In this document: positions 43,561 through 62,560 of the stretch, in pieces
Position numbering within the stretch: position 1 is the first letter of the stretch
Layout: each line of letters starts with the position of its first letter
Assembly: GCA_016182185.1 (NCBI GenBank)
Contig: JACOXU010000002.1
Location: forward strand, 22,874 to 86,873
DNA length: 64,000 nucleotides
Direction of reading: 5' to 3'
Source of the DNA: Candidatus Levyibacteriota bacterium
GTDB taxonomy: Bacteria; Patescibacteriota; Microgenomatia; Levybacterales; UBA12049
The notes under the pieces: generated by a model
The model's database searches: none
What the model was told of the DNA's origin: nothing
Seen by the model: the letters and a program-made list of their open reading frames with translations, nothing else
Program-made: the position numbers and the translations under genes

Positions 43561-43637
43561 ACAAAACAATTGAATATTTGGATTTTGAACTTCTAGTTTA
43601 ATTAGAGCTTGAAATTTAGGCATTGAAATTTTTACTT

Positions 43638-43904
43638 ATGGTTGCCAAGGTTTTTATTTCAGGTTTTGTTCAGGGAGTCGGCTTCAGGCAGCATATAAAA
43701 AAGAAAGCCCGATCTCTAGGTCTTACTGGGTGGATTAGAAATCTTCAGGATGGAAGAGTCGAGGCTTTATTCTCAGGATCAAGAGAAAAAATAGAAGAGG
43801 TAATTTCAGAGTGCAACAAAGGTCCATTTCTTGCGGAAATTAAGAATGTGACAGTTGAGTGGGTTGATTTAGATGAGGAATATACCGGCTTTAAGATTAT
43901 TTAA
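43638..43904 (+). CDS. Acylphosphatase
   Basis: 'VFISGFVQGVGFR' and 'GWIRNLQDGRVE' acylphosphatase signatures. ATG at 43638; the track start at 43623 is TTG. Confidence 0.75.
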   Translation: MVAKVFISGFVQGVGFRQHIKKKARSLGLTGWIRNLQDGRVEALFSGSREKIEEVISECNKGPFLAEIKNVTVEWVDLDEEYTGFKII

Positions 43905-44715
43905 TTTTCTTTAATTCTTCATCTATTAGGGTTTTAAAAGATGCGTATGGCTGTGCTCCTACAATTAATTGACCGTTAATAAAAGTTGCAGGGGTACCGG
44001 TGACGCCCGCTTTTTGTCCTGCTGAAAGATCATCGCTCACATTTTTTGAATATTTATCAGAATTAAGGCATGAAGCGAACTGATCTTTGTTAAGACCTAA
44101 GCTTTCTGCAAAACCGATTAGTTTATCCTTAGCAAATGCTCCGGAGTTTTCAGGACCCTGGTTATTATAGAGATAATCATGATATTCCCAGAATTTATCC
44201 TGTTCGTTGGCGCATTCTGAGGCTTGTGCTGCCCAGGTTGATTCTTGTCCCAGAAAGGCATAGTGCCTGAAAGCTAATTTAACCTTTCCTGTATCAACAT
44301 AGTCCTTTTTAAGATTCGGTATGGTATCTTTGAAGAATCTTTCGCAGAATGGACACTGAAAATCAGCAAATTCTATAATAGTTACTTTTGCATCATTTTT
44401 TCCAAGTACTGGAAGATGCCCATTATCGACTTTTACTCTTACCCCGGGTGAAGGAGCCTGATTTGGAACTGTTCCCTGGATTCCTGTTTGAGTCTGACCA
44501 GTTTGACCCTGCCCTTTTTCCACATAGGAAAGTTTTGTAGATAAGGCTCCGAGGAGAAATGCGGCAACTAGAAGAAGAACTAACAATATTGGCGTGTATG
44601 ATTTGTCGGTTAAGTTTATTTTATTTGAATTTTTTTTTTGAGGGCTTTGAGAAGTTTCAATTTTGTTTTCAGCTTTTTCTGCCACTATTTTTCTTCCGAC
44701 TACCTTTTTTGCCAT
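43897..44715 (-). CDS. Membrane-anchored thioredoxin-fold protein, DsbA/BdbD family
   Basis: One TM helix, then 'FADFQCPFCERF' CxxC active site. The start is likely the ATG at 44713-15, just downstream of a TTGACA-17-TATACA promoter-like element; the track ORF extends to 44751. Confidence 0.65.
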   Translation of the reverse strand: MAKKVVGRKIVAEKAENKIETSQSPQKKNSNKINLTDKSYTPILLVLLLVAAFLLGALSTKLSYVEKGQGQTGQTQTGIQGTVPNQAPSPGVRVKVDNGHLPVLGKNDAKVTIIEFADFQCPFCERFFKDTIPNLKKDYVDTGKVKLAFRHYAFLGQESTWAAQASECANEQDKFWEYHDYLYNNQGPENSGAFAKDKLIGFAESLGLNKDQFASCLNSDKYSKNVSDDLSAGQKAGVTGTPATFINGQLIVGAQPYASFKTLIDEELKKIK

Positions 44716-44970
44716 GTGGCAATTGTATATAGATAGTCTTGTTTTTGTCAAGCACTAAAACCCAAAGGAGTAAATAAGACATTCCAAAATGCCCTTAGCA
44801 GATTTTCATCTTTCGGATTTTTTATAAAATAACTCTTTCTTTTTGTTTTAAGATTGTGTCCAATGTTTTTTTTACCTCTAAAACATTCCCTCAAATCCCT
44901 AAAAGATAATGGTGTCGGCCAGGAACTTAAAAATGGTTCTGTATAGATATCTTTCATTTTTCACCTCCTT

Positions 44971-45186
44971 TCACAGATTTTTCAAAATTTGATATAAAAT
45001 AAATAACAATGTTAATAAAGCAAGGAAAATATTCACAGTAAGAAGCTTATTAAAAAAAGAGGGAAGGGAAATGGCCAGTTCATTCTTGGCCTTTTCGGAA
45101 TAAAACGTGAAGAGAATATTGTAAATTGTTATAGCAAGAACGAGAAGTAGTGTGGCTACGTAGACGATAAAAATTAGATAGTTCAT
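44971..45186 (-). CDS. Small two-TM membrane protein, hypothetical
   Basis: 71 aa hydrophobic ORF. Confidence 0.25.
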   Translation of the reverse strand: MNYLIFIVYVATLLLVLAITIYNILFTFYSEKAKNELAISLPSFFNKLLTVNIFLALLTLLFILYQILKNL

Positions 45187-45188
45187 AT

Positions 45189-45836
45189 TTATAACGCTTC
45201 GGCAACTCCTCCCGGAAAAATCTCTTGGGTGATTCTATAGGGTTTTTCTTTATTTCTTGGTCTATACCAGATAGGATTAACCATGATGTCAAGTTCTGCT
45301 TTATTCATATCCAAAACATCGGCCAAAAGAAAACCTACTGATTTGGGATCTTTGACATTCATAAAACAGAATTCTTCTTGATGAGTAGGCCTGTCAAAAG
45401 TTATCAATACATTTCCGATATCAAGTATTTGATTTATAAAGCCTTTCTTTTCAATATCAATTTCTGTGGATTTCACCTGATTGAGAATTACATTATTGAT
45501 GCTGCTTGCAAAGAGAGGTTTGTAGCTTACTTCAAGAACTCGTCTGTTTGTCAGAAGATAAAAATGACAGTGCCAATCAGCAATCAATTTAGAAATTATT
45601 GTTAGGGCAGAAAGGAGAATTACAAAATTCAAAGTTAAAAATAAATTGTTTTCAGGGAAAAATTGCAGAAACACAAAAAAGTTTACTCCCATAAGAAGAA
45701 AACTAAGCAGTACTGTTGAAAATATTGATAGAATAAGCGGGAACCAATGTTGCCTTCTTCGCAAAAGTATTTTTTCGCGGGGATCTACCAGAGGACTATC
45801 ATATATCGGCTTTGTAACATGCCTACTTTTTATCAT
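45189..45836 (-). CDS. Membrane protein with C-terminal bacterial PH-like domain, hypothetical
   Basis: Two N-terminal TM helices followed by a domain of about 110 aa. Confidence 0.35.
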   Translation of the reverse strand: MIKSRHVTKPIYDSPLVDPREKILLRRRQHWFPLILSIFSTVLLSFLLMGVNFFVFLQFFPENNLFLTLNFVILLSALTIISKLIADWHCHFYLLTNRRVLEVSYKPLFASSINNVILNQVKSTEIDIEKKGFINQILDIGNVLITFDRPTHQEEFCFMNVKDPKSVGFLLADVLDMNKAELDIMVNPIWYRPRNKEKPYRITQEIFPGGVAEAL

Positions 45837-46020
45837 AACGAAAGTCCTCCTTCTCTTAAAATGAATCGATAAATTCTACATAGCGATTTTTGATTGCATT
45901 CAGTGCCTTATGAAACCTTTATACATTATATTTAGCCAATTTTCAGTAATCTAGATTACTAATTCTAGAACTTGAGTTCATGCTTATGTTATAATTCCGA
46001 GGCTTGGGGGAACTAATAAA

Positions 46021-46668
46021 TTGGATCCGTCAAAAAAGATCGTAAAGTTTTTTGCTCAATTTAAGACTCATGCAATTAAGAAGGGAAGAACCTTTTTGAA
46101 AGCAGGGGATACCCCTCGCGGAGTTTATTTTATAAAGAAAGGTTATGCCAGAATTTATTCAGTCTCATCAGGAGGGAAAGAATTAACTCTTGTAATCTAT
46201 CAGCCGGGAGAATTTTTTCCAGTTGTTTGGACATTTACTTCAAAACCGAGTATATATTACTATGAAGCACTTAGTGATTTAGAAATATCAATCGCTCCCA
46301 GATTACAATTTGTCAAATTTACCAAAGAGAACCCTGATGTCTATGAAGAAGTTTTGAGGGGAATTATTGAAAGATTCCAAAATGCCTTAAAGCGCATGCA
46401 ATATTTAACTTTTGGCAATGTCAGATCTCGTATTGCATCGGTGTTTTTAATTTATGCAGAGCGTTTTGGAGTTAAAAAGGTAGAAGGAGAGATTCAGCTT
46501 CCTGTTCCTTTCACCCACAGCGACATTGCGAATATAGTCGGTGTTGCAAGAGAAACTGTGAGTATAGAAATCAAAAAATTTCTAGACGGGGGAATTATCG
46601 GTCATACCGGAAGATTTTTCATTATAAAAAATAAAAGAAGATTAGCAGCCGAAGCAAGTCAACTTTGA
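46021..46668 (+). CDS. Crp/Fnr-family transcriptional regulator
   Basis: cNMP-binding-like beta-roll in the N-terminal part; C-terminal HTH 'RSRIASVFLIYAERFG...HSDIANIVGVARETVSIEIKKF'. Confidence 0.75.
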   Translation: MDPSKKIVKFFAQFKTHAIKKGRTFLKAGDTPRGVYFIKKGYARIYSVSSGGKELTLVIYQPGEFFPVVWTFTSKPSIYYYEALSDLEISIAPRLQFVKFTKENPDVYEEVLRGIIERFQNALKRMQYLTFGNVRSRIASVFLIYAERFGVKKVEGEIQLPVPFTHSDIANIVGVARETVSIEIKKFLDGGIIGHTGRFFIIKNKRRLAAEASQL

Positions 46669-46679
46669 TTGGTTTCCTC

Positions 46680-46708
46680 TTGACAAGTGATCAAACTAAT
46701 GTTATCTT
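46680..46708 (+). promoter_or_regulatory. Sigma70-like promoter for the CsoR operon
   Basis: TTGACA-17 nt-TATCTT, about 40 nt upstream of the csoR-like ATG, which carries the SD GGAGGGAGG. Confidence 0.35.
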
Positions 46709-46745
46709 AATCTAGACCTATATCCTAGGAGGGAGGATTATAAGA

Positions 46746-47006
46746 ATGCAACCAAATGGTAAACAGCAGGTAATAAGAAGACTCAGTATTATCGAAGGTC
46801 ATCTCAAAAGAGTCAAAAAGATGGTTGAGATGGAAGAATATTGCCCCAATATTATTCAGCAATCCTCGGCAGTTCAAAGCGCACTTCGAAAGGTCGATGA
46901 ACTTTTACTTGAGGGGCACCTGAAAGATTGCGTTACCAATGCGATTAAATCAGGCGGAGGAGATAAGGAGATAAAAGAACTTCTAGAGGCATTCAGTAAG
47001 AGGTGA
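46746..47006 (+). CDS. CsoR/RcnR/FrmR-family metal-sensing transcriptional repressor
   Basis: 'RRLSIIEGHLKRVKKM...YCPNIIQQSSAVQSAL...EGHLKDC' fits the W-X-Y-Z Cys/His pattern of CsoR-like repressors; 86 aa. Confidence 0.75.
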   Translation: MQPNGKQQVIRRLSIIEGHLKRVKKMVEMEEYCPNIIQQSSAVQSALRKVDELLLEGHLKDCVTNAIKSGGGDKEIKELLEAFSKR

Positions 47007-47007
47007 T

Positions 47008-47508
47008 ATGGATAAAAAAATTTTAATCGGATTGCTCTCCTTTTCCCTATTGATCATAGTTGGCGGTGCTTTTGTTTTGAGCAACGGTCCGACCAAGGCA
47101 GTAGTTGAAAAAACCCAAGGTGCAAAACTAGAAACAAAGGAGACTAGCTTTGATTTTAAGGAAATACCCTACTCAGGAGGTAAGGCAGAACACGCGTATC
47201 TTATAAAAAATACAGGGAATAAAGATCTTGAAATAGCCAATATTTCAACCTCATGCATGTGCACAATCGCATATTTTAAAAGTGAAAGAGAAATGAGTTC
47301 TGAATTCGGCATGAAAGGCATGACTCAGCCATCAAGCTGGAAAGGAATTTTAAAGGCCCAAGAGGAGGGAAAAATTGTTATTGTTTTTGATCCTGCTTTT
47401 CATGGTCCTCAGGGAGTAGGTCCGATATCTCGAATAGTAAGTTTCGAAACAAATGATCCTGATAATCCCTACGCTGAATTTGCCTTTTCCGGAACAGTCG
47501 TAAAATAA
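47008..47508 (+). CDS. Signal-anchored DUF1573-like beta-sandwich protein
   Basis: 'NISTSCMCTIAYF' resembles the conserved SCGCT motif of DUF1573; N-terminal TM or signal segment. Confidence 0.5.
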   Translation: MDKKILIGLLSFSLLIIVGGAFVLSNGPTKAVVEKTQGAKLETKETSFDFKEIPYSGGKAEHAYLIKNTGNKDLEIANISTSCMCTIAYFKSEREMSSEFGMKGMTQPSSWKGILKAQEEGKIVIVFDPAFHGPQGVGPISRIVSFETNDPDNPYAEFAFSGTVVK

Positions 47509-47518
47509 CCCCTTATTT

Positions 47519-48463
47519 ATGGCAAAAAGAAAAAGTTTCTTGCAAAAATTTAAATTCTTAGGCAAAAAATCAAAACAAAGATATCTTATTCTTCCTCTTC
47601 TTTTTCTGGTTCTTGTTTCGTTCACTTTAGGTGTGTATATTGGGCAAGTAAGCATTAATAATTCTAAAAAGAGTTTGGTTGATAAATCTTCGGGAATTGA
47701 CCTTACAAAACTTCAGGAAGAAGTAATACCACAAAAAGGTTATGATATTAAAATTCATTGGGGAAATTTGGGCAAGAGGATGATCGAAGACGGAGTCATT
47801 GATGAGACAAAACTTGCAAAAGCGGTGACAGGATCAGATAAACTTCCAGAAGATCTTAAAAAATATTTAAACGGCGAGGACATTAAAAAAATAACTCTTA
47901 ATCAAAATAATGCGCAGTTTTGGGTGGATGTTCTTTGGGGACTGGGACTTGCCAACAAGAATGAAATTCTTGATAAGGGTCCGATGCAAGAGGGAGGAAA
48001 TACGGCCAATTTTGCCTCAACTGGAGGATATACGATCGGTGTGAAAGCGCCTATGGAGTTTTATAGTAAGTTCTTCTATATTCAGCTTTCGGAAAAACAA
48101 CAAAAATTTGTCAGAGAAATTGCAGAGAATGTCTACAGACCCTGTTGCGGAAATTCAACTGCATTTCCTGATTGTAATCACGGTATGGCAGCTTTGGGAC
48201 TTATTGAACTTATGGTTTCTCAAAATAAATCTAAAGAAGAAATTTACAAGACAATTCTTGCTTTTAATTCCTATTGGTTTCCTCAAACTTACCTTGATAT
48301 CTCGTATCATTTTGTCAAAAATGGGCGGAACTATGGGGATGTAAATCCACAAGAAATTCTTTCCAAAACTTTTTCAAGCGCCATGGGATACGATGTTATC
48401 AGAAAAAAAGTAGGAAAGTTGGAGTGGCCCATCCTGGGCAGCGGGGGAAGGTGCGGAGCCTAA
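47519..48463 (+). CDS. Membrane-anchored extracytoplasmic protein, hypothetical (CCGNS...C.H motif)
   Basis: One N-terminal TM helix; 'RPCCGNSTAFPDCNHGMAALG' Cys/His cluster. Confidence 0.4.
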   Translation: MAKRKSFLQKFKFLGKKSKQRYLILPLLFLVLVSFTLGVYIGQVSINNSKKSLVDKSSGIDLTKLQEEVIPQKGYDIKIHWGNLGKRMIEDGVIDETKLAKAVTGSDKLPEDLKKYLNGEDIKKITLNQNNAQFWVDVLWGLGLANKNEILDKGPMQEGGNTANFASTGGYTIGVKAPMEFYSKFFYIQLSEKQQKFVREIAENVYRPCCGNSTAFPDCNHGMAALGLIELMVSQNKSKEEIYKTILAFNSYWFPQTYLDISYHFVKNGRNYGDVNPQEILSKTFSSAMGYDVIRKKVGKLEWPILGSGGRCGA

Positions 48464-48464
48464 T

Positions 48465-49298
48465 ATGGAAGGAGTTTTTTTTCAAACGTCTCTCATGGCT
48501 GCTTTCATTGCCGGTATGGTTGCTCTTTTTGCTCCCTGCTGCATAAGCTTTCTTCTCCCTGCATATCTTGGCGGAGTCTTCAAAGAAAAGGAAAAAGTCT
48601 TGTTTATGACTTTCATATTCGGGCTTGGCATTTTTATTGTTCTTATGCCCGCAGTCCTAGGCGTCGCATTTATTTCGCAAATGCTCTTTCGCTACCATGA
48701 CACTATTTATATATTGGGTGGATTTTTAATGCTTATCGTTTCGGTAACTACATTTTTAGGGATAAAACTGCCTTTTCATATTCCGGGAAGAAACTTAAGC
48801 GGCAAACCTGATGTTTTATCAATTTTTGTCCTGGGAATATTTTCGGGTATCACAAGCGCATGCTGCGCTCCGGTTCTTATCGGGATTCTCACTTTTGCTT
48901 TTCTTTCTCCGAACTACCTCGGAGCCCTTCTTATAGGCGGGATGTATGTCTTCGGAATGGTTATGCCGCTTTTGCTAATTTCTGTTTTTCTTTCGGGCAA
49001 GCTTCCTAAATTGGCAGTTCTCAGAAAGCCAGTCTCAGTAATTAAAATTTTTGGCAAAGAATACGTTCTTTTTCTAAGTAACGTTATAGCAAGTATTATT
49101 TTTTTTATTGCCGGATTTTTTACCCTGCTTCTTACTTCAACCGGACGGTTATCGATGGCACAAAGCGAGAGCTTTGCTAAATTTATTCAAAATACCGGAG
49201 GATTTGTCAATCAATATATAGGCGGGAATCTGGTTATAAATATTATTTTTCTTGCAATTGTTTTATTTATCCTCTATAAACTAGCCAAAAAAATCTAA
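48465..49298 (+). CDS. CcdA/DsbD-transmembrane-domain family thiol-disulfide transporter
   Basis: 'FAPCCISFLLPAYLG' matches the CcdA 'SPC.LP..PaYL' motif; second Cys pair 'TSACCAPVLIG'; about 6 TM helices. Confidence 0.65.
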   Translation: MEGVFFQTSLMAAFIAGMVALFAPCCISFLLPAYLGGVFKEKEKVLFMTFIFGLGIFIVLMPAVLGVAFISQMLFRYHDTIYILGGFLMLIVSVTTFLGIKLPFHIPGRNLSGKPDVLSIFVLGIFSGITSACCAPVLIGILTFAFLSPNYLGALLIGGMYVFGMVMPLLLISVFLSGKLPKLAVLRKPVSVIKIFGKEYVLFLSNVIASIIFFIAGFFTLLLTSTGRLSMAQSESFAKFIQNTGGFVNQYIGGNLVINIIFLAIVLFILYKLAKKI

Positions 49299-49388
49299 AT
49301 TCCCACAGTTTCGCCCTCAATAAAGGTAATCCAAATTACTGACGGATATTGATCAGCTTGGTATTCTTAAAATACAAAAAGAAAGGAG

Positions 49389-49817
49389 GTGGCAAAAATG
49401 GCAAATGATATAATTCCACGAACATTTTTAAGATCTCCGTTTGTTTCCCTTCCGTCTGTGTGGGAGGACATAGAAGAAATGCTCCCGACAACGGGGAATA
49501 TAAGCGGGCTATCAATTTCTGAAGACGGACAGAATATTTATGTTTCTGCTGCTGTTCCTGGAGTTGATCCAGAAGACGTAGATATAAGTTTTGAGAAAGG
49601 CGTACTTTGGGTTAAAGCAGAAAAAAAAGAGGAGGAAAAAGGAAAAAAATTCTACAGGAAGGCAACTAGTTCTTTTTCCTATAGAGTTACTGTTCCTGGT
49701 GAAATTGACCCAAATATTGAGCCTGAAGCATCCTGCAGGAATGGCATAGTGACTGTTACCTTTGTTAAGTCTCCCAAGGTCAAGCCTAAAAAGATTGCAG
49801 TAAAAAGCGGGAAGTAA
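49389..49817 (+). CDS. Hsp20/alpha-crystallin small heat-shock protein
   Basis: 'KGVLWVKAE...YRVTVPGEIDPN...NGIVTVTF' alpha-crystallin domain; strong SD GGAGGTGG. Confidence 0.8.
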   Translation: MAKMANDIIPRTFLRSPFVSLPSVWEDIEEMLPTTGNISGLSISEDGQNIYVSAAVPGVDPEDVDISFEKGVLWVKAEKKEEEKGKKFYRKATSSFSYRVTVPGEIDPNIEPEASCRNGIVTVTFVKSPKVKPKKIAVKSGK

Positions 49818-49827
49818 CGTTATAGTT

Positions 49828-50283
49828 ATGAGATATACGGTAACAGCAAAACAGTGTGAGCTTTCAGACAAGGCGCTTTTGCATATTAAAAATCATGTCC
49901 GAAAGCTTGCCGGTTTATTGCCTGAATTTAGGGTTGATCTTCCCCTTCTTGAAATTATAATAAAAAGACATAAAAAAAGAAGATTAAATCATATTACAGA
50001 TGAGGTAAGAATCGATAATGTTATAGAGATAGTTGAATCCGTAACTCCTAAATCCGAAGATCCTATTTATTATGACGGCACAATAAAACTTATTTTGCCC
50101 AAAAAACCTCTAGTTGTTTATACACGGGGATTTTTACTTGATCAGGTCATCGATGTAGGCTTTCATCGGCTGACGAAAGAAATCAAGACATACAAGGGAA
50201 AACATTTTGTCGGCAACAGTGAATATTTTGATCGTCGCTCAATAAGAACCGGCGATTATTTTATAAACTCGACAGAAAAATAA
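49828..50283 (+). CDS. Hypothetical protein (possibly ribosome-hibernation/RaiA-like)
   Basis: N-terminus 'MRYTVTAKQCELSDKALLHIKNHVRKL' loosely fits the HPF/RaiA pattern; unverified. Confidence 0.3.
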   Translation: MRYTVTAKQCELSDKALLHIKNHVRKLAGLLPEFRVDLPLLEIIIKRHKKRRLNHITDEVRIDNVIEIVESVTPKSEDPIYYDGTIKLILPKKPLVVYTRGFLLDQVIDVGFHRLTKEIKTYKGKHFVGNSEYFDRRSIRTGDYFINSTEK

Positions 50284-50375
50284 GATGACTCAAAAAGGCC
50301 CGGGTTCCTCAGGAGTAAAAAGCCAGTAGCAAAACTTCTTTTAAAATAGTACGATAGAAAAGGAGGTGATAAAAG

Positions 50376-50540
50376 ATGATGGGCTTTGTAGGAGATTACC
50401 GCGGTATGATGGATTGGGGATTTTCAGGCAATGCAGGCTGGGGATGGTTTGGCGTTACTCATATTGCTTTTTCAATTGTAATTTTAGTTGATCTTATCCT
50501 TTTGGGACTTTGGCTTTGGAAACAGATTCAGAAGAAATAG
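50376..50540 (+). CDS. Small (54 aa) Trp/Gly-rich membrane protein not in the ORF track
   Basis: ATG preceded by a perfect SD AAGGAGGTGAT; sequence 'MMGFVGDYRGMMDWGFSGNAGWGWFGVTHIAFSIVILVDLILLGLWLWKQIQKK'. Confidence 0.4.
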   Translation: MMGFVGDYRGMMDWGFSGNAGWGWFGVTHIAFSIVILVDLILLGLWLWKQIQKK

Positions 50541-50562
50541 TCTAGAGAGGAGGTGAATTAAC

Positions 50563-50943
50563 TTGAAAAATAAAAGCGTTGAGTGGATTTTGCGCATTGC
50601 GGTTGCCGGTGAATTCTTAGGACACGGGATGTTTAGCATAAACGGTAAAGAGCAATGGTCAGGTTGGATCAGTCAATTAACAGGAGTTGATTTAGCTACC
50701 GCCACTCAACTTCTTTTTCTGATAGGCGTACTTGATTTATTTATTGCACTCATCGTTCTGCTTAGACCGATCAGAATAGTCCTTGTCTGGGCGGTTTTTT
50801 GGGGATTCTGGACAGCCATACTTCGACCAATTGTTGGTGAACCAATCTGGGATTTTATTGAAAGATTTGCTAATATTGGAGCACCATTAGCACTTTTGGC
50901 CTTAAGAGGGATACCTCAAAAAGCAAAAGATTTAATGTCTTAG
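50563..50943 (+). CDS. DoxX-like membrane protein
   Basis: TTG start with SD GAGGAGGTGA; 126 aa with 3-4 TM helices. Confidence 0.45.
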   Translation: MKNKSVEWILRIAVAGEFLGHGMFSINGKEQWSGWISQLTGVDLATATQLLFLIGVLDLFIALIVLLRPIRIVLVWAVFWGFWTAILRPIVGEPIWDFIERFANIGAPLALLALRGIPQKAKDLMS

Positions 50944-51000
50944 ACAATTTTATAAAAGTAATAAATAGTTAATTACATCCTGAAAGAAGGAGGTGATAAT

Positions 51001-51558
51001 ATGGACAAAAATGAAATAGCTGTGACGCATATTCCGGAGCCAAAACTATCCCGTCTTCTTTTTGCCGATACTCGATTTGCTCTTATTTGGCTTGTTATCA
51101 GACTTTATACAGGTTGGGTTTGGCTTGAAGCAGGTTTAGAAAAAGTTCAGAATCCTGCATGGGCAGGTGCAACTGCCGGAACAGCCATGAAAGGTTTTAT
51201 TCTGGGAGCAATAGCTAAGGCATCTGGCGAACATCCTGCTGTTCAAGGTTGGTACGCAACTTTTCTAAATGATTTTGTCTTGCCAAATATTTCAGTATTT
51301 TCATATTTAGTTGCGTATGGCGAGCTACTCGTAGGAATAGCACTTATTTTGGGTATTTTTACAGGAATTGCGGCTTTTTTCGGCGGATTCATGAACATGA
51401 ACTTTCTCTTGGCAGGAACTGTCAGCGTGAATCCAATACTTTTTCTTTTTGAACTTTTCCTGATTCTGGCATGGAGAGTGGCAGGTTGGTGGGGAGCAGA
51501 TAGATATATTTTGCCCGCACTCGGTACGCCATGGAAACCAGTAAAAATTTTCAAGTAA
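51001..51558 (+). CDS. DoxX-family membrane protein
   Basis: SD AGGAGGTGATAAT before the ATG; 185 aa; four TM helices with DoxX-like spacing. Confidence 0.55.
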   Translation: MDKNEIAVTHIPEPKLSRLLFADTRFALIWLVIRLYTGWVWLEAGLEKVQNPAWAGATAGTAMKGFILGAIAKASGEHPAVQGWYATFLNDFVLPNISVFSYLVAYGELLVGIALILGIFTGIAAFFGGFMNMNFLLAGTVSVNPILFLFELFLILAWRVAGWWGADRYILPALGTPWKPVKIFK

Positions 51559-51559
51559 G

Positions 51560-52195
51560 ATGGTAAGAGAGGCAGGATTTATGAATGAAGATCAAGATGC
51601 TGGTGAATCGATGAAAAGTCCAGAAAAAGAGCCGATACAAACAGAATGGGTAGTCATTACTGGTGGCCCATCTTCAGGGAAAACCTCCGTTATTAATCGA
51701 TTGAAAGAGTTGGGATACAAAACTGTTCCTGAAGCAGCAGAAGAACTTATAGAGGAAGAGAGAGCAAAAGGAAAAAAGACAGAAGACATAAGAGTAAGCG
51801 AAGAAGAATTCACAAAATTAGTTTTTTACAAGAAACTGGAAAAAGAGACTAGGCTTTCTGCAGGCAGTCTTACATTTCTTGATCGTGGTCTTCCAGACAC
51901 AATTGCATACGGACAAGCAGATAAATATGACATTTCTTACGCATTAAATGATCCTAGATTAAATGTAAATAAGTATAAAAAGGTATTCCTTTTGGACTTG
52001 GTTCCCTTTGAGCAAACAGAGATAAGAATTGAGGATAAGGCGTTTGCGGAAAGAGTAGACCAAGAATTAAGTGATGCATATAAAAGCTTAGGCTATGATG
52101 TCGTCCGAGTACCGGCATTACCTGGGGCAACTCTTAAAGAAAAGGTAGACACCCGTACGCAATTTCTCTTGCAATCTTTACAGCTTACATCCTGA
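51560..52195 (+). CDS. AAA_28/NadR-like P-loop ATPase
   Basis: Walker A 'ITGGPSSGKTSV'; 211 aa. Confidence 0.5.
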   Translation: MVREAGFMNEDQDAGESMKSPEKEPIQTEWVVITGGPSSGKTSVINRLKELGYKTVPEAAEELIEEERAKGKKTEDIRVSEEEFTKLVFYKKLEKETRLSAGSLTFLDRGLPDTIAYGQADKYDISYALNDPRLNVNKYKKVFLLDLVPFEQTEIRIEDKAFAERVDQELSDAYKSLGYDVVRVPALPGATLKEKVDTRTQFLLQSLQLTS

Positions 52196-52284
52196 TTTAT
52201 TTCCCAGAAATTTCAGAATAACTCTTGACACCTAGGAAATTCAGCTTTATACTAAGGGTATCCTCCAGGGGAGGATACCATATT

Positions 52285-54522
52285 ATGAAGAAAAAAATAT
52301 ACATTTGCCCAATGCATAAGGAAATAAGATCCGATAAACCCGGTAAATGCCCAAAATGTGGAGGAATGGATCTTATCGAGATTGAAGAGAGTAATTCAAA
52401 AGAAGAAAACATGAATCACCAGGATGATGAACCCTCCCATAATTCACTCTACACATGCCCGATGGATCCTGATGTGATAAAAGACAGGCCCGGTAAATGC
52501 CCAAAATGTGGGATGGATCTAGCTCCTCTTATCAAATCAGAAAATAGTCAACACGCAGGTCACAAGGGTCATAAATCAATGGAAGAGGATTTTAAAAGAA
52601 GGTTTTTTGTAACCTTACCTCTTGTTCTTATAGTGATGTTTCTTTCTCCCAACATACAGAAATGGCTTGGAATATCAATTGATTTCTTAAGTCGGGATAT
52701 TCTAATCTTTATTTTGGGAACGTTTATTTTTTTCTTCGGGGGTTTACCATTCTTTAAGGCCGCAAAAGGCGAGATAAGGACTAAAAGCTTCGGCATGATG
52801 ACTTTAGTTGCGCTTGCCATAAGCGTCGGATATGTCTTTTCGGTCGCTGCCACCTTTTTATTTCCCGGAGAATCGCTTTATTGGGAAATCTCGACTCTTA
52901 TTTCTGTTTTTCTTTTAGGTCACTGGCTTGAAATGAGAGCTGTAAGAGGTACAACAGGGGCATTGGCAGAACTTGCAAGGCTCATTCCTCAGACTGCCCA
53001 TCTTATAAAAGGAAAAGAAATAGTTGAAATTGAGACAGAAAAGCTTGCTAAGGGAGATAGGGTTTTGGTAAAACCAGGAGAAAAAATTCCAGTTGACGGA
53101 ATTGTGATCTCAGGAGAAAGTTCTGTAAATGAATCAATGCTTACAGGAGAATCAGCGCCTATTGTAAAAAACCAGGGAGACAAGGTTATTGGAGGAACTA
53201 TTAATGGCGATGGCTCGCTTACTGTAGAAGTCGCCAAAATAGGTAAAGAAACCGCAATTTCACAAATAATGGAGCTCATTAGGCAAGCTCAAGAGTCAAA
53301 GCCTTCAGTGCAAAAACTAGCTGATCGAGGAGCTTTTATACTCACCCTTACTGCTATATCAGTTGGCATTGCAACCTTCGTTTTTTGGTTATTTTTAATT
53401 CCTCAAGGCGCAATTTTTGCAGCAACTCTTGCAGTTTCCTCAATTGTAGTTGCCTGTCCTCATGCCCTGGGACTTGCTATCCCAACCGTAACGACAATTA
53501 CGTCAACACTTGCTGCCAGAAACGGAATTCTCATAAAAGACATGAAGGGTCTTGAGGTGCTTAGGAAGGTAAATTATGTCGTTTTTGACAAAACAGGAAC
53601 TTTAACCAAAGGGGAATTTGGCGTAAATGATATTCTTGTCAGTAAAAATTCTAAGTTGAGGCCTGAAGAAATTCTTAAGCTAGCTGCTGCAATTGAGGCG
53701 CATTCTCAGCATCCGATTGCAAAAGGAATAGTTGATGAGGCAAAAAAGAAAAATCTAAAACTGCCTGAAATTAAGAATTTTAAATCCTTTCCGGGCAAGG
53801 GCGCAGAGGGGATAGTCTCAGATAAATATATTTTGGTTGGCAATAGGATTCTTCTTAATGAATTAAAGTTGGAAGAAGATGTTTTTGAGAAAAATATTGA
53901 TATGGGTGTTTCAACCGGTGTTTATGTTGCTGTTGATAAAAAAGTTGAAGGATTAATTCTTCTTTCAGATATTTTAAGGGAAGAATCAAAAGAAGTTATA
54001 CAAAAACTTCAACAAATGCAAATTAAAACAGCCATGCTTACCGGAGATCGGGGAAACGTAGCTTCTGAAGTTGGTAAACAGCTTAAAATAGATACGGTTT
54101 TTGCAGAAGTATTGCCTGAAGATAAGGTAAATAAGATTAAAGAACTTCAAAAAAAAGGAAGTATTGTTGCAATGGTCGGAGACGGTGTAAATGATGCGCC
54201 ATCACTTACTCAAGCGCATGTTGGAATTGCAATCGGTGCAGGAACTGATGTAGCAGTTGAATCTGCAGAAATAGTCTTGGTTAAAAATGATCCAAAAGAC
54301 GTAGTAAAGGCAATCTCTCTAAGTAGAAAAACCAACAATAAAATGATCCAAAATCTTCTCTGGGCGACCGGTTACAATGTATTTGCTATTCCAACTGCAG
54401 CAGGAGTATTTTATCCATCGTTTAATATTCTTCTTAGACCGGAATGGGCGGCAATTCTTATGAGTATGTCTTCGATTATTGTAGTATTTAATGCACTTTT
54501 ACTCCGCAGAGCAAAGCTTTAA
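52285..54522 (+). CDS. copA: Copper-translocating P-type ATPase
   Basis: Two N-terminal 'CPMH...[10 protein letters not shown]' metal-binding repeats; TM 'CPH' motif; 'DKTGTLT' phosphorylation site; 'GDGVNDAP'. The ATG at 52285 has a GGGGAGGA SD; the track ORF extends upstream to 52225. Confidence 0.85.
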
Positions 54523-54525
54523 GTT

Positions 54526-55155
54526 ATGAAGCGAAAAGATTACACGCAAGCTCTAACATTAGGATTCTTCACAGGGTGGTATGATTCAATAGTTAATCTT
54601 ATGGGCTTTGGGAAAAGATATTATGCAAAAGCAGCAGATTATATTCAGCCAGGGGATAGAGATAGTATACTTGATGTAGGAACCGGAACTGCAAATTTAG
54701 CCATCGCAATTAGACAAAAATATCCCCGTGTTAAAGTTACAGGCATTGACCCTGATAAAGAAATTCTTGAAATTGCAAAAAAGAAAATTAAAAAGGAGAA
54801 ATTTGACATAGAGTTAATAAATACGCCAGCGCAGAAACTCCCTTTTCCTTCTGAATCTTTTGATTTTGTAGTCTCAAGTCTTGCTATCCATCACATTCCT
54901 AAGTCATTTAAAAAAGAGTCTTTTTCAGAAATGAAAAGAGTGCTTAAGAGAAACGGAGTGATTTTGATTGTTGATTTTGGTATCCCTAAAAACTTCTTTG
55001 CAGACATAATTTCATTTATACTTTCACTCCTTGAAGATGTTGGGCCAAATCGAAAAGGATTAATACCTAATGCATTGAATGATTTAGGATTTAAAGATAT
55101 CAAGGAAGTTGGGAACAAATTTGGATTGATATCATTTTATAAGGCAAGAAAATAA
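54526..55155 (+). CDS. Class I SAM-dependent methyltransferase
   Basis: 'ILDVGTGTANLAIAI' motif I. Confidence 0.7.
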   Translation: MKRKDYTQALTLGFFTGWYDSIVNLMGFGKRYYAKAADYIQPGDRDSILDVGTGTANLAIAIRQKYPRVKVTGIDPDKEILEIAKKKIKKEKFDIELINTPAQKLPFPSESFDFVVSSLAIHHIPKSFKKESFSEMKRVLKRNGVILIVDFGIPKNFFADIISFILSLLEDVGPNRKGLIPNALNDLGFKDIKEVGNKFGLISFYKARK

Positions 55156-55180
55156 TAGAATGGAAAGGAGGTGATAAAAC

Positions 55181-55444
55181 ATGTTGAAGTCGATTGCATT
55201 TGCAAATGCTTTTACAGCGGTTGGATTAGGTGCGTATGTAGCTTGCAGGGCATTGTCTCTTGCGGCACCAGACCTTCTTTTTAATATCGGCACAAGCTGG
55301 TTTCATACATTTAACCTTGATTCAACAAGAGCGGTAACACCATTTGATATTGGCACATTTTTATTTGGAGCAGTTACTTTTGGCGCTTTTGTCTGGATCA
55401 TAGCATACGCTGGAGCAGCGCTCTACAATAACTTGGCGAAATAA
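55181..55444 (+). CDS. Small membrane protein, hypothetical
   Basis: SD AAAGGAGGTGAT before the ATG; 87 aa with two TM helices. Confidence 0.35.
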   Translation: MLKSIAFANAFTAVGLGAYVACRALSLAAPDLLFNIGTSWFHTFNLDSTRAVTPFDIGTFLFGAVTFGAFVWIIAYAGAALYNNLAK

Positions 55445-55909
55445 TTGTTTATGCTGAAAAGGCCGAGCTTAAAAATTATACTAGGACCAGTTTTAAAAGG
55501 ATCAACTGCATCAGTTATTCTACTTTTGGTCTACTTTTCAGTTACGTCTTTTGTATCTGGGTGGGAATTTAGCTTAAGTCAATTTTCAGAGTTTTGGTAT
55601 TTTATTGTTACACTTTCTTTTGGATTTGGAGCCCAATTAGGACTTTATACATATCTTAAAAAATTAATAAATAAGGAAAGTGGTTCAAGAAAGATCTTAA
55701 CAGTCTCAGGAACTACGTCAACCGTTGCTATGATTTCTTGCTGTTCCCATTATCTTGTAAATATTCTGCCATTTATTGGTATTACGGGTTTTCTTACAGT
55801 TATATCTCAATATCAAATTCAGTTTTTTTGGGTAGGTCTTATATTTAATCTACTGGGAATTTTATATATTACAAACAAAATTTTAAATATTAAAAAATTT
55901 AATAAATAA
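55445..55909 (+). CDS. Polytopic membrane protein with CC motif, hypothetical
   Basis: 154 aa with four hydrophobic segments and 'ISCCSHY'. Confidence 0.35.
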   Translation: MFMLKRPSLKIILGPVLKGSTASVILLLVYFSVTSFVSGWEFSLSQFSEFWYFIVTLSFGFGAQLGLYTYLKKLINKESGSRKILTVSGTTSTVAMISCCSHYLVNILPFIGITGFLTVISQYQIQFFWVGLIFNLLGILYITNKILNIKKFNK

Positions 55910-55911
55910 GG

Positions 55912-56361
55912 ATGAAAAAATTAATTTTACTAATTATTTTGATACTGGGTTTTATAATTGGAGCAGGATTGATTCTCCAGCAAAACAACAAAAATAACCC
56001 AAGTACCGAAATTATTACTCCAATCCAAGAGCAACCCAGATCCTTCGAACCGATTGAAGACAATCAGGGAGAGGTTGTGGTTAAAGTAACTCCAAAAAGG
56101 CTTTCATCAAAGGAAAATGTTGAATTTAATATTTCCTTAAGTACCCATTCGGTAGACTTGGATTATTCGCTAAAAGATATATCTTTGATCGAGGATGATA
56201 AAGGAAACGAATATAAACCAATAAGCTGGAGTGGAGGGAAAGGCGGCCATCATTTAGAAGGAATTTTAATTTTTCCTCCTTTTTTGAATAAGACTATGTT
56301 TGTTAGATTAATAATCAAACAAATCGGTGGGGTAGACAAGAATTACAAATGGGATTTGTGA
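55912..56361 (+). CDS. Signal-anchored beta-sandwich-like protein, hypothetical
   Basis: N-terminal TM helix, then a domain of about 110 aa ending in 'GGKGGHHLEG'. Confidence 0.35.
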   Translation: MKKLILLIILILGFIIGAGLILQQNNKNNPSTEIITPIQEQPRSFEPIEDNQGEVVVKVTPKRLSSKENVEFNISLSTHSVDLDYSLKDISLIEDDKGNEYKPISWSGGKGGHHLEGILIFPPFLNKTMFVRLIIKQIGGVDKNYKWDL

Positions 56362-56456
56362 TTTATTTAGACATTAATCCGTAGAATCAGTCTAATTGAA
56401 TTAATCAAAATTAATAGTTGCTTTTTGCTTCAAAAGGGGTCTACAATTAATTTAGT

Positions 56457-58286
56457 ATGCCCAGTTCTAAACTGCCTAAGAAAGCGGTATATGATTTAGG
56501 TGTTACGGTCAAAGACAAGAAGGTATTCCTTTTTCATAATCTTTTTGGGTATAAAAATGCATTCCGCATTGCCACAAGTACAGATGGTTTTTCTTTCAAA
56601 CGCTTCTCAAAAGAACCTCAGATTCTCAATGAGAGGGGCGAAAGGGAAATTACTCTAAAATGTAGAGATTTTCGGATATCTCAAGCAGGCAGCGATTTTT
56701 TTCTGACCTACAAAATAGAAAAAAACAGGAATAAAATTTTATCCTCTGCAACATCTAAAGATTTAATAACCTGGAAAAAGATAAATTATCTCCCGGATAT
56801 AAAAGAGATTTCTATGTTGGTCCCCGATTATAAATATAATGAAGATTATGTTTTGTATTTTGGAGAGGATGATATAAAGATTGCTTTTTCTAAGGATCTT
56901 AAAAATTGGGAAATAAAAGAGACAGTACTTTCGAAAAGAGAAGGACATTTCGACAGCGGGCCTCTTAATCTAGTCTCAGTTTTTGCGCAAGATGACGGAA
57001 TATTGGTAATTTATTTCACAAAGAGCAAGAAAGAGAAAAACTTTGTTTATTATCTTGGCGCAGCACTTTTTGACAAAAATAACCCAAACCAACTCTTAAA
57101 AAGAAGAGAACAGCCTCTTTGGGAACTTGAAGATGATCGAGAACTTTTCCCGCTTGGAGCCATAGAATTTGATGATAAGTTGATAGTTTATATTGGAGCC
57201 GCAGGCAAGGGAGTTTTTGCTCTATCCTTCGGTTCAGTTTCTTCATTTTCCTCTGCTCCTCTTCTTGAAAAAGTCGATAAGAATCCCATTCTTGAACCCG
57301 TGCTTGAGCATCTCTGGGAAAACCAGGCCACATTTAATCCTGCGGCAATTTACGACGAGGGCAAAGTTCACTTTATTTATCGGGCAGTAGGAAGTTCTGA
57401 TACTTCGGTTTTAGGTTATGCGGCAAGTACAGACGGAATAAATATAGACGAAAGACTGGATGATCCGGCCTATATTCCGCGGGAAGATTTTGAAGTACCG
57501 GCTTTCAGTTCTCCTTATCCTTCAGCCTATATGTCAGGCGGCGGAGGGTACGGAGGATGTGAAGATCCAAGATTGACCAAAATTGATAACCGCGTTTACA
57601 TGACTTATGTTGCCCATAATGGCAGTAATGCTCCGAGGGTAGCTCTGACTTCTATATCGGTTGATGATTTTAAAAATAAGCGCTGGAATTGGGATAAAGC
57701 CAAGATTATTTCAGCGCCTGATGTGGTGGATAAAAATGCATGCTTATTGCCTGAGAAAATCAAAGGAAAATACGTAATTTTTCATCGCATTTTTCCGAAC
57801 ATTTTGATAGATATGGTAGATGATTTAAATTTTGAAAATGATTATCTTAAAGGGGAATATTATATCGGGCCGAGAAAAAACTTCTGGGATTCAAGAAAAG
57901 TTGGAGCAGGCGCGCCGCCCTTGAAGACAGATGAAGGGTGGCTTCTTATTTACCACGCTGTTGACGATCGCGATGCTTCAAAATATAAAATGGGAGCGAT
58001 GCTTCTTGATCTTGATGATCCTACCAAGGTAAATTTCAGATCAAGCACTCCAATTCTAGAGCCTAGAGAATGGTATGAAAATGAAGGTTTCAAAGCTGGA
58101 GTTGCTTATCCATGTGGGTCCGTGATTTTTAAAGATGATTTAGTTGTTTATTATGGCGGGGCTGATAAAGTAGTTTGCGCAGCTAAGAAAAATTTAAACG
58201 ACTTTATTACTGGTCTTAAACATTCAAGTAATATCCAAATGGATCAGACCGTAGGCTTCAAAAGACTCATGAGGGACTATGATTAA
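56457..58286 (+). CDS. GH130-family glycoside phosphorylase/hydrolase-like protein with an extra N-terminal domain
   Basis: C-terminal half has 'FNPAAIYDEGKVHFIYRAVG...GYAASTDG', 'GCEDPRLTKIDNRVYMTYVAHNG' and 'GWLLIYHAV', which are GH130/DUF377 hallmarks. The N-terminal approximately 270 aa looks like a degenerate repeat of the same fold. Confidence 0.7.
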   Translation: MPSSKLPKKAVYDLGVTVKDKKVFLFHNLFGYKNAFRIATSTDGFSFKRFSKEPQILNERGEREITLKCRDFRISQAGSDFFLTYKIEKNRNKILSSATSKDLITWKKINYLPDIKEISMLVPDYKYNEDYVLYFGEDDIKIAFSKDLKNWEIKETVLSKREGHFDSGPLNLVSVFAQDDGILVIYFTKSKKEKNFVYYLGAALFDKNNPNQLLKRREQPLWELEDDRELFPLGAIEFDDKLIVYIGAAGKGVFALSFGSVSSFSSAPLLEKVDKNPILEPVLEHLWENQATFNPAAIYDEGKVHFIYRAVGSSDTSVLGYAASTDGINIDERLDDPAYIPREDFEVPAFSSPYPSAYMSGGGGYGGCEDPRLTKIDNRVYMTYVAHNGSNAPRVALTSISVDDFKNKRWNWDKAKIISAPDVVDKNACLLPEKIKGKYVIFHRIFPNILIDMVDDLNFENDYLKGEYYIGPRKNFWDSRKVGAGAPPLKTDEGWLLIYHAVDDRDASKYKMGAMLLDLDDPTKVNFRSSTPILEPREWYENEGFKAGVAYPCGSVIFKDDLVVYYGGADKVVCAAKKNLNDFITGLKHSSNIQMDQTVGFKRLMRDYD

Positions 58287-60201: not shown

Positions 60202-60279
60202 ATTATCTCCAAAGATTTGGTAGTTGACAAAAAAAGATTAAGTCGCCAAGCTTAAATAGTTGCGAAAATATAAAAATAC

Positions 60280-61173: not shown

Positions 61174-61506
61174 GTGAATATGGCGGATACAACTTTTACA
61201 GATCAGAATTTTGAACAAGACGTACTTAAGAATAATTTACCCGTTCTTGTAGATTTTTGGGCTCCCTGGTGTGCTCCATGTAGAATTGTTTCTCCAATTG
61301 TTGAAGAGCTGGCAAAAGAATATGAAGGCAAATTAAAGGTAGGGAAATTAAATGTTGACGAGAATCCTGAGAATGCATCAAAGTATGGGGTAATGAGCAT
61401 TCCGAGTTTGATTATTTTTAAAAACGGCCACCCGATTAAAACAGTAATTGGCGCTCAGGGAAAAGAAAACTTCAAAAAAGCAATTGACGAAGCCCTGAGC
61501 GCATAA
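61174..61506 (+). CDS. trxA: Thioredoxin
   Basis: 'WAPWCAPCR' active site; 110 aa; SD AAGGAGGTGAAT. Confidence 0.85.
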
Positions 61507-61510
61507 CGGC

Positions 61511-61575
61511 ACAAATCCTAAGTCCTAATTTTTAATTTCTAAACAAATATCAAATCCCAAATCTTAAATTCAAAG
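61511..61575. repeat. Intergenic copy of the AT-rich short repeat
   Basis: acaaatcctaagtcctaatttttaatttctaaacaaatatcaaatcccaaatcttaaattcaaag, just after the trxA stop. Confidence 0.3.
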
Positions 61576-61648
61576 CAGTTTAGGGCTTAGCATTTTGAAA
61601 ATTGGAATTTATTTAGGATTTAGATATTCGGATTTAGGATTTCTTAAT

Positions 61649-62560
61649 ATGTATGACGTGATAATAATCGGTAGTGGGCCTGCAGGGCTGACCTCTGCAA
61701 TCTATACAACCCGCGCGAGTCTTAAAACCCTAGTTGTCGCCGGTGGTAAATGGGGTGGTCAGCTTATGCTGACAACTTTGGTCGAGAACTATCCCGGATT
61801 TCCAGAGGGAATTCAAGGTCCTGATCTAATGCTTGCGATGCGAAAGCAGGCAGAAAGATTTGGAGCAGAATTTATTGATGAAAATTTCGAAGAATCAGAT
61901 TTTACAAAACTCCCATTCCGAATAACTGCAGCCGGAAAAACATTTGAAGGTAAGTCAGTAATAATTGCAACGGGGGCTGACACCAGATGGCTCGATGTTC
62001 CCGGTGAAAAAGAAAAAATCGGAAGAGGCGTGTCGTCTTGCGCACCGTGCGATGCATTCTTCTTTAAAAATAAGAAAACTATAGTGATTGGAGGAGGAGA
62101 CAGCGCCATGGAAGAGGCAATTGTCCTTGCCAATTTTGCTGAATCGGTAACTGTAGTTCATAGAAGTGAGGCTTTACGGGCAAGTCAAATCATGCAGGAT
62201 AAGGCCAGGAAAAATCCAAAGATTAAATTTATTTTCAATACCGAGGTTAAAAAAATTTTGGGAGATGATCATGTGACGGGAGTCGAGCTTTTGAATAACA
62301 AAACCAATGAAACTTCTAAGATTGATATAGACGGAGTATTTGTCGCAATCGGTCATATTCCCAACACCAAGATCTTCAAAGGCATAGAGCTTGATAAAAA
62401 GGGTTATGTGAGAGTCCACGATCATACCAGAACCAACATTGAGGGTGTTTTTGTGGCAGGAGATGTGCATGACAGTCACTACAGACAGGCAGTTACTGCC
62501 GCAGGTTTTGGATGCGCTGCGGCACTTGAAGCCGAGCGCTGGCTGAGAGACCAAGAATAG
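61649..62560 (+). CDS. trxB: Thioredoxin-disulfide reductase
   Basis: 'MYDVIIIGSGPAGLTSAIY' FAD motif and redox-active 'CAPCDA'; NADPH motif 'GGGDSAMEEA'. The first ATG is at 61649; the track start at 61595 is TTG. Confidence 0.85.
   Translation: MYDVIIIGSGPAGLTSAIYTTRASLKTLVVAGGKWGGQLMLTTLVENYPGFPEGIQGPDLMLAMRKQAERFGAEFIDENFEESDFTKLPFRITAAGKTFEGKSVIIATGADTRWLDVPGEKEKIGRGVSSCAPCDAFFFKNKKTIVIGGGDSAMEEAIVLANFAESVTVVHRSEALRASQIMQDKARKNPKIKFIFNTEVKKILGDDHVTGVELLNNKTNETSKIDIDGVFVAIGHIPNTKIFKGIELDKKGYVRVHDHTRTNIEGVFVAGDVHDSHYRQAVTAAGFGCAAALEAERWLRDQE

Follow-up and report, generated by a model that had tools for sequence, protein, structure and literature searches.

In the canonical CsoR-CopZ-CopA regulon (Bacillus, Mycobacterium, and Streptomyces), the repressor carries a Cys-His-Cys triad and targets copA through a pseudo-palindromic operator with GC tracts that overlaps the promoter. 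In the Scs system of Salmonella, Proteus, and Caulobacter (ScsB-ScsC-ScsD-ScsA) and in the DsbD (CutA2)/DsbC system of E. coli, a DsbD-superfamily transporter is combined with Cys-bearing envelope proteins, and both work alongside a Cu(I) ATPase. Scs is induced by copper, and ScsB and ScsC are Cu(I)-binding thiol oxidoreductases (PMC10907172, PMC8900818). Here, we analyzed a cluster of four forward-strand genes (g1 to g4) in a 64 kb stretch of DNA (hereafter, the window) from a metagenome-assembled genome of an uncultured member of Levybacteria (Patescibacteria, or Candidate Phyla Radiation, CPR). The gene identities, conserved residues, shared operator, and conserved linkage that make up the in silico support lead us to conclude, with high confidence, that the cluster represents a CsoR-controlled, copper-linked module found across the CPR.

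The window shares the C-H-C triad, the type of operator, and the copA target with the canonical CsoR regulon, but it has no CopZ, and csoR (g1) is predicted to be co-transcribed with genes for extracytoplasmic or membrane Cys proteins (g2, g3, and g4). The combination of a DsbD-superfamily transporter (g4) with Cys-bearing surface proteins (g2 and g3), proposed to work alongside the Cu(I) ATPase CopA, resembles Scs and DsbD/DsbC. Unlike in these two systems, the regulator is CsoR instead of CpxRA or CueR, the transporter is a minimal CcdA type with CC pairs and without alpha or gamma domains, and its partners are an Ig-like sandwich of the DUF1573 type and a helical protein of a new family, not thioredoxin-fold proteins. 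As neither an ScsB-type alpha domain nor a thioredoxin-fold ScsC or ScsD was found in the operon, the module is considered to be Scs-like in its working but not a member of Scs. The logic of the system is thus already known; the g3 family, the CC-type CcdA subfamily, and the DUF1573 CxC protein in a CsoR regulon are new, and no description of a csoR-linked g2-g3-g4 module was found in the literature searched.

The four open reading frames (ORFs) span positions 46746-49298 with intergenic gaps of 1, 10, and 1 nt, as the original prediction for this DNA had stated. The motifs that it had named were also located (SCMCT at residues 82-86 of g2, CCGNSTAFPDCNHG at 209-222 of g3, and APCC at 23-26 of g4, to which ACCAP at 132-136 can be added), and so were the context genes that it had listed around the operon, namely those for a DsbA-like protein, Hsp20, DoxX, the P1B-type ATPase, ArsR, TrxA, and TrxB (Table 1). 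The proteins g1 to g4 contain 2, 2, 4, and 4 Cys residues, respectively, and all 12 are conserved in the homologues. The GC content of the operon (0.381) equals that of the window (0.380), and a horizontal-transfer island was rejected for this reason.

Table 1. Features of the copper-linked locus and its surroundings in the window (TM, transmembrane).
Feature	Position	Strand	Description
DsbA-like gene	43897-44751	-	divergent
Crp/Fnr gene	46021-46668		5' of csoR
Operon promoter-like site	46680..46708	+	TTGACA-17-TATCTT; TG before -10; 10/12 matches
CsoR-box-like site of the operon	46721..46738	.	imperfect inverted repeat TATCCT-AGGAGGG-AGGAT between -10 and g1 ATG; overlaps ribosome-binding site
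g1 (csoR)	46746..47006	+	CsoR-family Cu(I)-sensing repressor, 86 aa; PF02583 1.8e-25; predicted ligands C33/H58/C62
g2	47008..47508	+	membrane-anchored DUF1573-type Ig-like beta-sandwich, 166 aa; Pfam DUF1573 1.4e-12; NCBIfam OS_HP2 (seleno)protein 1.1e-12
g3	47519..48463	+	new family, 314 aa; N-terminal TM helix and helical extracytoplasmic domain; no known domain
g4	48465..49298	+	CcdA/DsbD-type membrane thiol-disulfide transporter homologue, 277 aa; CC pairs C25-C26 and C133-C134
Hsp20	49389-49817		
ORF without family	49828-50283		151 aa
Mini-protein	50376..50540	+	Met/Gly/Trp-rich, single TM, 54 aa, MMG..GMM...LLGLWLWKQIQKK; probable accessory member
DoxX-like gene	50563-50943		no Pfam match
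DoxX	51001-51558		
AAA_28 protein	51560-52195		
copA promoter-like site	52225..52253	+	TTGACA-17-TATACT; 11/12 matches, top match in region
CsoR-box-like site of copA	52257..52279	.	perfect palindrome GGTATCCTCC-AGG-GGAGGATACC, five bases before copA ATG
copA	52285..54522	+	P1B-type Cu(I) ATPase with N-terminal HMBD metal-binding domains; Pfam E1-E2_ATPase, Hydrolase, HMBD
Two tandem GH130-family genes	56457-60201		609 and 640 aa
ArsR-type regulator	60280 (start)		
Free-standing 4-TM homologue	60603-61136		177 aa; no Pfam family; TM-embedded GCASCG, C-terminal Cys
TrxA and TrxB	61174..62560	+	Pfam Thioredoxin 2e-31; Pyr_redox_2 4.8e-56; TrxB from 61595

CsoR-family repressor, operators, and gene neighborhood

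The g1 protein passed the PF02583 gathering score by a wide margin (89.5 bits against a cut-off of 22.8) and was scored far lower by the FrmR and RcnR models than by the CsoR family model. Using the x-Cys-His-Cys ligand fingerprint (C36/H61/C65 in Mycobacterium tuberculosis), C33, H58, and C62 of g1 were found to align with the Cu(I) ligands in the CsoR structures 4m1p and 2hh7, with Tyr32 preceding C33. An FrmR-, RcnR-, or CstR-type regulator was rejected, as the C-H-C triad is kept. The original prediction of a CsoR-like repressor, which had considered that closer alignment might reveal an FrmR-type protein without the triad, was therefore correct.

An inverted repeat near csoR had been proposed as a check, and a TTGACA-17-TATCTT promoter had been described; both were found. 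The two best sigma-70-like matches in 45800-52400 are the promoters of the operon and of copA. The start of copA was confirmed as the ATG at 52285, which gives an HMBD-type N-terminus; the TTG that the ORF list gives at 52225 coincides with the start of the -35 hexamer. The pattern TATCCT-N7-AGGAT occurs at two sites in the window (46721-46738, and 52259-52276 inside the copA palindrome), compared with 0.05 expected. These sites are a variant form, since the strict canonical operator TATCCCC-N1-6-GGGGATA had no match in the window. The form found before g1 was also observed in the close relatives L003, L006, and L008 (related loci are numbered with an L prefix), while most other loci have a canonical box, either ATATCCCC-N-GGGGGATAT or ATACCC-N5-GGGTAT, at the equivalent position directly after the TTGACA promoter, so that TTGACA sits just 5' of the CsoR box there too. 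When 1.06 Mb of related loci was scanned with the 17-bp pattern AT[AC]CCC-N5-GGG[GT]AT, 79 boxes were obtained, compared with approximately 30 in shuffles; 28 of them precede csoR and five precede copA. In six loci where csoR is not directly 5' of g2, the box precedes g2 itself. Thus, these sites predict that g2-g3-g4 is part of the CsoR regulon, both where it shares a transcript with csoR and where it does not.

The conservation of the module was examined with one genome per species. At least 592 species genomes encode a g3 relative, and almost all of them are labelled Patescibacteria or unclassified; the informative labels include Levy-, Davies-, Woese-, Ames-, Roizman-, Gottesman-, Yanofsky-, Jorgensen-, and Vogel-bacteria, Peribacteraceae, and others. 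Several g3-bearing bins carry other labels (e.g., Gammaproteobacteria, Rikenellaceae, and Armatimonadetes), for which mis-binning is suspected. Neighbors were counted in the 49 of 80 g3 loci that have full flanks. Either g2 or g4 is near g3 in 47 of these 49 loci, g4 and copA in 43 each, g2 in 41, and csoR in 34. The commonest order, csoR-g2-g3-g4-copA, was observed in 17 of the 80 loci, and other orders include g2-g4-g3, g3-g2-g4, and csoR after g4. As the gene order is shuffled, the linkage points to selection for a functional connection rather than to inherited synteny. The expectation that these genes are co-located in related genomes was therefore borne out across Patescibacteria. The description of the operon as non-canonical holds in comparison with Bacillus but not within the CPR, where the arrangement is common. 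Given that the cluster recurs in dozens of species and that the operator pattern is found twice against 0.05 expected, the arrangement is beyond chance.

Other genes were linked to the module less regularly. DsbA-like genes lie within 8 kb of g3 in 20 of the 49 full-flank loci. A Crp/Fnr gene was found in five of the 49 and is thus not part of the conserved module; in the window, the synteny of the Crp/Fnr gene and of the divergent DsbA-like gene extends only to the close relatives L003 and L008. Genes for cupredoxin, DsbD_2-cupredoxin, and HMA proteins were observed in approximately 30 of the 80 loci. For example, g4 and the mini-protein gene are followed in L001 (7979-11864) and L005 (8074-12003) by genes for an anchored cupredoxin (C-G-M-N-M-x-H), CopA, a DsbD_2::cupredoxin fusion, and an HMA (CopZ-like) protein. 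No cupredoxin homologue was detected in the window by tblastn, and the DsbD_2-cupredoxin and HMA genes of those loci were also absent from it.

Predicted properties of g2, g3, g4, and associated proteins

The DUF1573-like identity proposed for g2 was supported by Pfam (PF07610, 47.9 bits against a gathering score of 26.1), although the match covers only model positions 2-52 of 98, and the NCBIfam OS_HP2 score of 48 is under the cut-off of 100. The protein has a single TM segment (residues 5-23), and an alignment of 37 homologues showed C83-x-C85, M102, W111, and H132 to be invariant. Its AlphaFold2 (AF2) model has a predicted local distance difference test score (pLDDT) of 93 and matched PapD/ASH-like folds, including the Porphyromonas structure 2qsv. 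The 50 best of 114 fold matches (E ≤ 0.001) were generic PapD/ASH Ig-like folds and included no copper chaperone or DsbD-alpha. In published selenoprotein tables, the selenocysteine (Sec) motif of DUF1573 is UGC, the Sec equivalent of CxC. The N-terminal half of the g2 domain is common to the DUF1573/OS_HP2 (seleno)proteins, and its CxC matches their UGC in type, whereas the C-terminal half, which holds the invariant Met, Trp, and HGP, is peculiar to this CPR subgroup.

The protein encoded by g3, labelled "hypothetical protein" in the source databases, had no match in Pfam (E ≤ 10) or NCBIfam, and its profile had no sequence match in the Protein Data Bank (PDB), in agreement with the novelty claimed for it. 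More than 5,700 homologues were found at 90% clustering, which form 490 clusters at 50% identity. In an alignment of 121 diverse members with 28-59% identity, W140, C209, C210, D218, and C219 are invariant, and 90% or more of the members retain R207, P208, N212, N220, H221, G222, and C312. The AF2 model of the helical domain has a pLDDT of 85. C312 falls in its low-confidence C-terminal tail, which is probably flexible, judging from the model. From the translation, the N-terminus of g3 is rich in Lys and Arg and is followed by a single TM helix. As g2 and g3 each have one N-terminal TM helix and the g3 N-terminus has this composition, their domains should face outward. The module had been described as a periplasmic Cys-rich one; it is Cys-rich, but with single N-terminal anchor helices on g2 and g3, the appropriate term is extracytoplasmic. 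The host is a CPR bacterium that probably has no outer membrane.

The best Foldseek match of g3 in the PDB was the periplasmic domain of CcmH (2hl7; probability of 0.77, TM-score of 0.66 on the target, 63 columns, E = 2.5), and no other meaningful match was found beyond this subdomain. CcmH, the System I apocytochrome c thioreductase (2HL7 and 2KW0), consists of a three-helix bundle held by one TM anchor, with the active site in the loop that joins helices 1 and 2 (PMC3884852). The PCC loop of g3, which lies between helices 192-203 and 220-234 in the AF2 model, corresponds in position to that loop. With hhalign, g3 residues 190-248 aligned with CcmH residues 8-67 at 32% identity and P = 0.0024 (alignment A1). 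The score of 25.0, compared with 12.7 ± 2.5 for column-shuffled CcmH, was not reached in any of 200 shuffles, but the shuffling destroys helical periodicity and flatters the result. The alignment pairs RPCCGNST-FPDCN of g3 with RCPKCQNNS-IADSN of CcmH, the latter being of the general form RCPxCQN.S..DSN, and both are followed by a "KSK(E/K)EI" helix. The two proteins thus share anchoring by one TM helix, a Cys-bearing loop that connects two helices of a small helical bundle, and the signature P-x-C-x-N-x-S/T...D-x-N followed by a "KSxxEI" helix. Unlike in CcmH, the Cys residues of g3 are adjacent, an extra C-x-H and a C-terminal Cys are present, and the helical domain is much larger (approximately 250 aa). 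The redox-active LRCxxC of CcmH is not found in g3, in which the motif is RPCC without CxxC, and neither g3 nor any of the 121 relatives matched Pfam CcmH (PF03918) at E ≤ 1. Membership of g3 in CcmH was rejected because of the missing Pfam match, the missing CxxC, and a P value that weakened to 0.04-0.07 with a more diverse g3 profile (A4); a CcmH-like subdomain at residues ~190-250 is retained as a weakly supported lead.

The CcdA/DsbD-type identity that had been assigned to g4, with its unusual APCC, was supported by the family profile, which matched the CcdA structure 5vkv at 1.2e-7 with the first Cys of each CC pair aligned with a catalytic Cys, and by homologues at 85-90% identity that carry PF02683. 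The g4 protein has a membrane core homologous to that of the System II CcdA of Thermus (5VKV), with Cys residues aligned to those of TM1 and TM4, and the expected thioredoxin donor is encoded in the window. In the g4 motifs APCC(ISF) and ACCAP, each catalytic-position Cys has a second adjacent Cys, giving P-C-C and C-C-x-P in place of the P-C-x-x-P of CcdA. The g4 protein further differs from CcdA in having seven predicted hydrophobic segments instead of six, no ResA-like partner at the locus, and putative control by copper. FAPCC and CCxPVL were present in all 60 full-length g4 homologues encoded beside g3, most of which have no other Cys.

Domain fusions were surveyed in 121 cluster representatives of g3. 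Three were fused to rhodanese, one to HMA, and one to DsbC_N, and approximately 25 had an N-terminal membrane domain of four to five TM helices with a TM-embedded CxxC. A free-standing homologue of this 4-TM domain is encoded in the window between the ArsR-type regulator and TrxA/TrxB, and other homologues are directly beside DsbA-like genes in L010, L028, L030, L046, and L059. By analogy with DsbB/VKOR or CcdA, the 4-TM family is a candidate for new membrane thiol conduits. Locus L088, which has a CsoR-type box and no g4, has genes in the order csoR, Met-rich secreted protein, P1B ATPase, 4TM::g3 fusion, and cupredoxin, and for this reason the g3 domain seems always to work with a membrane protein carrying Cys inside the bilayer. 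In L086 (1607-3285), genes for a cupredoxin, a stand-alone rhodanese, and a Ferric_reduct-like membrane protein come after a 4TM::g3 fusion gene; in some lineages, g3 may thus be surrounded by a broader set of genes for extracytoplasmic redox and copper functions. A 381-aa 4-TM CxxC member in L024 (2381-3526) has an extra C-terminal Cys-rich domain (GSCCSPMNMH..., KGPCCCKCW..., DGCGGQGDHVNH).

The mini-protein has the sequence MMGFVGDYRGMMDWG...LLGLWLWKQIQKK. Its homologues (44-55 aa, MMG..GMM...LLGxWLWKQIQKK) are encoded between g4 and copA, immediately next to g4, in at least 13 related loci, while the window copy is displaced approximately 1.1 kb 3' of g4. The homologues in L001, L003, and L005 have no recorded Pfam match. 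The mini-protein probably acts as an accessory peptide that binds Cu(I). A secreted Met/His-rich protein (…MGRMGMMMMGPVGPMGWG…) with a C-terminal TM helix is encoded between csoR and the P1B ATPase in L088 (4391-4912), and its tail resembles the mini-protein.

Proposed working of the module and alternative explanations

We favor, with moderate confidence, a copper-induced and thioredoxin-fed module for surface thiol and Cu(I) buffering, in which electrons are relayed through g4. At low copper, a g1 tetramer would occupy the inverted repeats 3' of the two TTGACA promoters and block both its own operon and copA, and Cu(I) bound at C33/H58/C62 would release it from the DNA. CopA would then pump Cu(I) from the cytoplasm, while g4 would carry reducing equivalents from cytoplasmic thioredoxin to g3 and thence to g2 on the outer face of the membrane. 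TrxA/TrxB, neighboring genes whose membership in the regulon is putative, would be the cytoplasmic electron source, as CcdA is known to use thioredoxin as its cytoplasmic electron donor (PMC3884852). The reduced thiolates of g3 (CC...C-x-H and the flexible C-terminal Cys) and of g2 (CxC, with Met and His) could capture Cu(I) at the surface, reduce copper-made disulfides and sulfenates in surface proteins, or both, and the Met-rich mini-protein would probably help in Cu(I) binding. In this scheme, we infer the induction by copper, the direction of electron flow, the order g4 to g3 to g2, and the binding of Cu(I).

Several observations weigh against this scheme. The left inner arm of the operator is degenerate at the operon site in the window, and Hsp20 and other genes sit between g4 and copA. 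The g4 protein of the window itself had no match to Pfam DsbD (PF02683), even at E = 10, thiol-disulfide exchange does not usually involve vicinal CC pairs, and domain scans of the four proteins found no thioredoxin-fold acceptor encoded in the operon. The link of g3 to CcmH is weak, given the Foldseek E value and the higher hhalign P value with the A4 profile, and no g3-family member comes from a cultured organism. A pure metal relay, moreover, fits the residues of g2 to g4 equally well.

Such a Cu(I) relay is the main, though tentative, alternative, in which g4 would be a CcdA-derived channel passing Cu(I) across the membrane through its four membrane-embedded Cys residues (2 × CC), and g3, g2, and the mini-protein would be extracytoplasmic metallochaperones or sinks. 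Vicinal CC pairs are characteristic of sites for Cu(I) or Hg(II) (e.g., the CC of Cox17 and MerT), and in g4 they are invariant and are the only Cys residues. Cox17 binds Cu(I) via two adjacent Cys residues, MerT and MerF rely on a CC-x-x-P motif in a TM segment, and metal exporters are among the members of the LysE superfamily, to which the DsbD fold belongs. The CC-x-P of g4 presumably resembles the motif of the MerT/MerF mercury transporters, but general domain scans of the genes in ~43600-63600 gave no Mer family match. The PCC of g3, the CxC and the invariant Met and His of g2, the g3 relative fused to an HMA domain, and the loci shared with genes for the Met-rich peptide, cupredoxins, and HMA proteins also agree with metal transfer. 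However, g4 aligns with CcdA through both catalytic-Cys helices, Cu(I) export is already supplied by CopA, the DsbC_N and rhodanese fusions point to thiol chemistry, and metal transport is not known for any DsbD-family member. It is rather doubtful that g4 is the first DsbD/CcdA-fold Cu(I) conduit, feeding a new metallochaperone fold (g3), g2, and the mini-protein in a CPR-specific Cys-based copper relay; in such a relay, the second 4-TM CxxC family (60603-61136) could replace g4. By analogy with ScsB/ScsC, electron and Cu(I) relays may coexist.

The remaining explanations were judged by how well they fit the regulator and the gene content. Cuproprotein maturation, in which the module would keep Cys reduced in neighboring anchored cupredoxin-like proteins or would metallate them, appears improbable: the cupredoxin and DsbD_2-cupredoxin genes of approximately 30 of the 80 loci adjoin the module in L001, L005, L086, and L088, but the window keeps g2-g4 without a cupredoxin homologue, and control by a repressor that leaves the DNA at high Cu(I) is better suited to defence than to supply. 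Because the window has no such homologue, cupredoxin maturation was rejected as the main role. A housekeeping extracytoplasmic redox function (cytochrome-c-type maturation or disulfide isomerisation) that is merely located near copper genes is quite improbable. CcdA and CcmH both serve in the maturation of cytochrome c (PMC3884852), and the DsbA-like genes counted above would suit such a function. Yet the CsoR box directly precedes g2 even where csoR is elsewhere, the commonest operon arrangement starts with csoR, inspection of individual loci revealed no genes for haem handling, and g3 lacks the CXXC of CcmH. We give very little credence to a sulfur or persulfide stress system under a CstR-like member of the CsoR family, to which the three g3 relatives fused to rhodanese and the separate rhodanese gene in one locus might point. 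CstR is not known to have the His of the triad, which g1 keeps, the same type of operator precedes copA, and no persulfide dioxygenase or SQR gene was seen.

Surroundings of the module and its meaning for Patescibacteria

Between g4 and copA in the window, Hsp20 and the ORF at 49828 have no homologue in the related loci, so that Hsp20, like Crp/Fnr, does not count among the conserved members of the module, and no terminator-like site was found on the forward strand between g4 and Hsp20. The two GH130-family genes farther 3' encode beta-1,4-mannooligosaccharide phosphorylase-like proteins.

The boxes described here provide a clear CsoR operator model for CPR genomes, which can be used for mapping copper regulons. 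A testable function is offered for the g3 family of "hypothetical proteins", for a DUF (g2), and for a CC-type subfamily of CcdA. The g3 motif may have arisen by remodelling of the active site of CcmH, which, if true, would add to the few thiol-redox or Cu(I) proteins without a thioredoxin fold. Patescibacteria have tiny genomes with few recognisable defence functions and are often attached to hosts. That the module is kept beside a copper pump in at least 592 species genomes suggests that the protection of surface thiols, or protection from copper, is important for the lifestyle of these bacteria.

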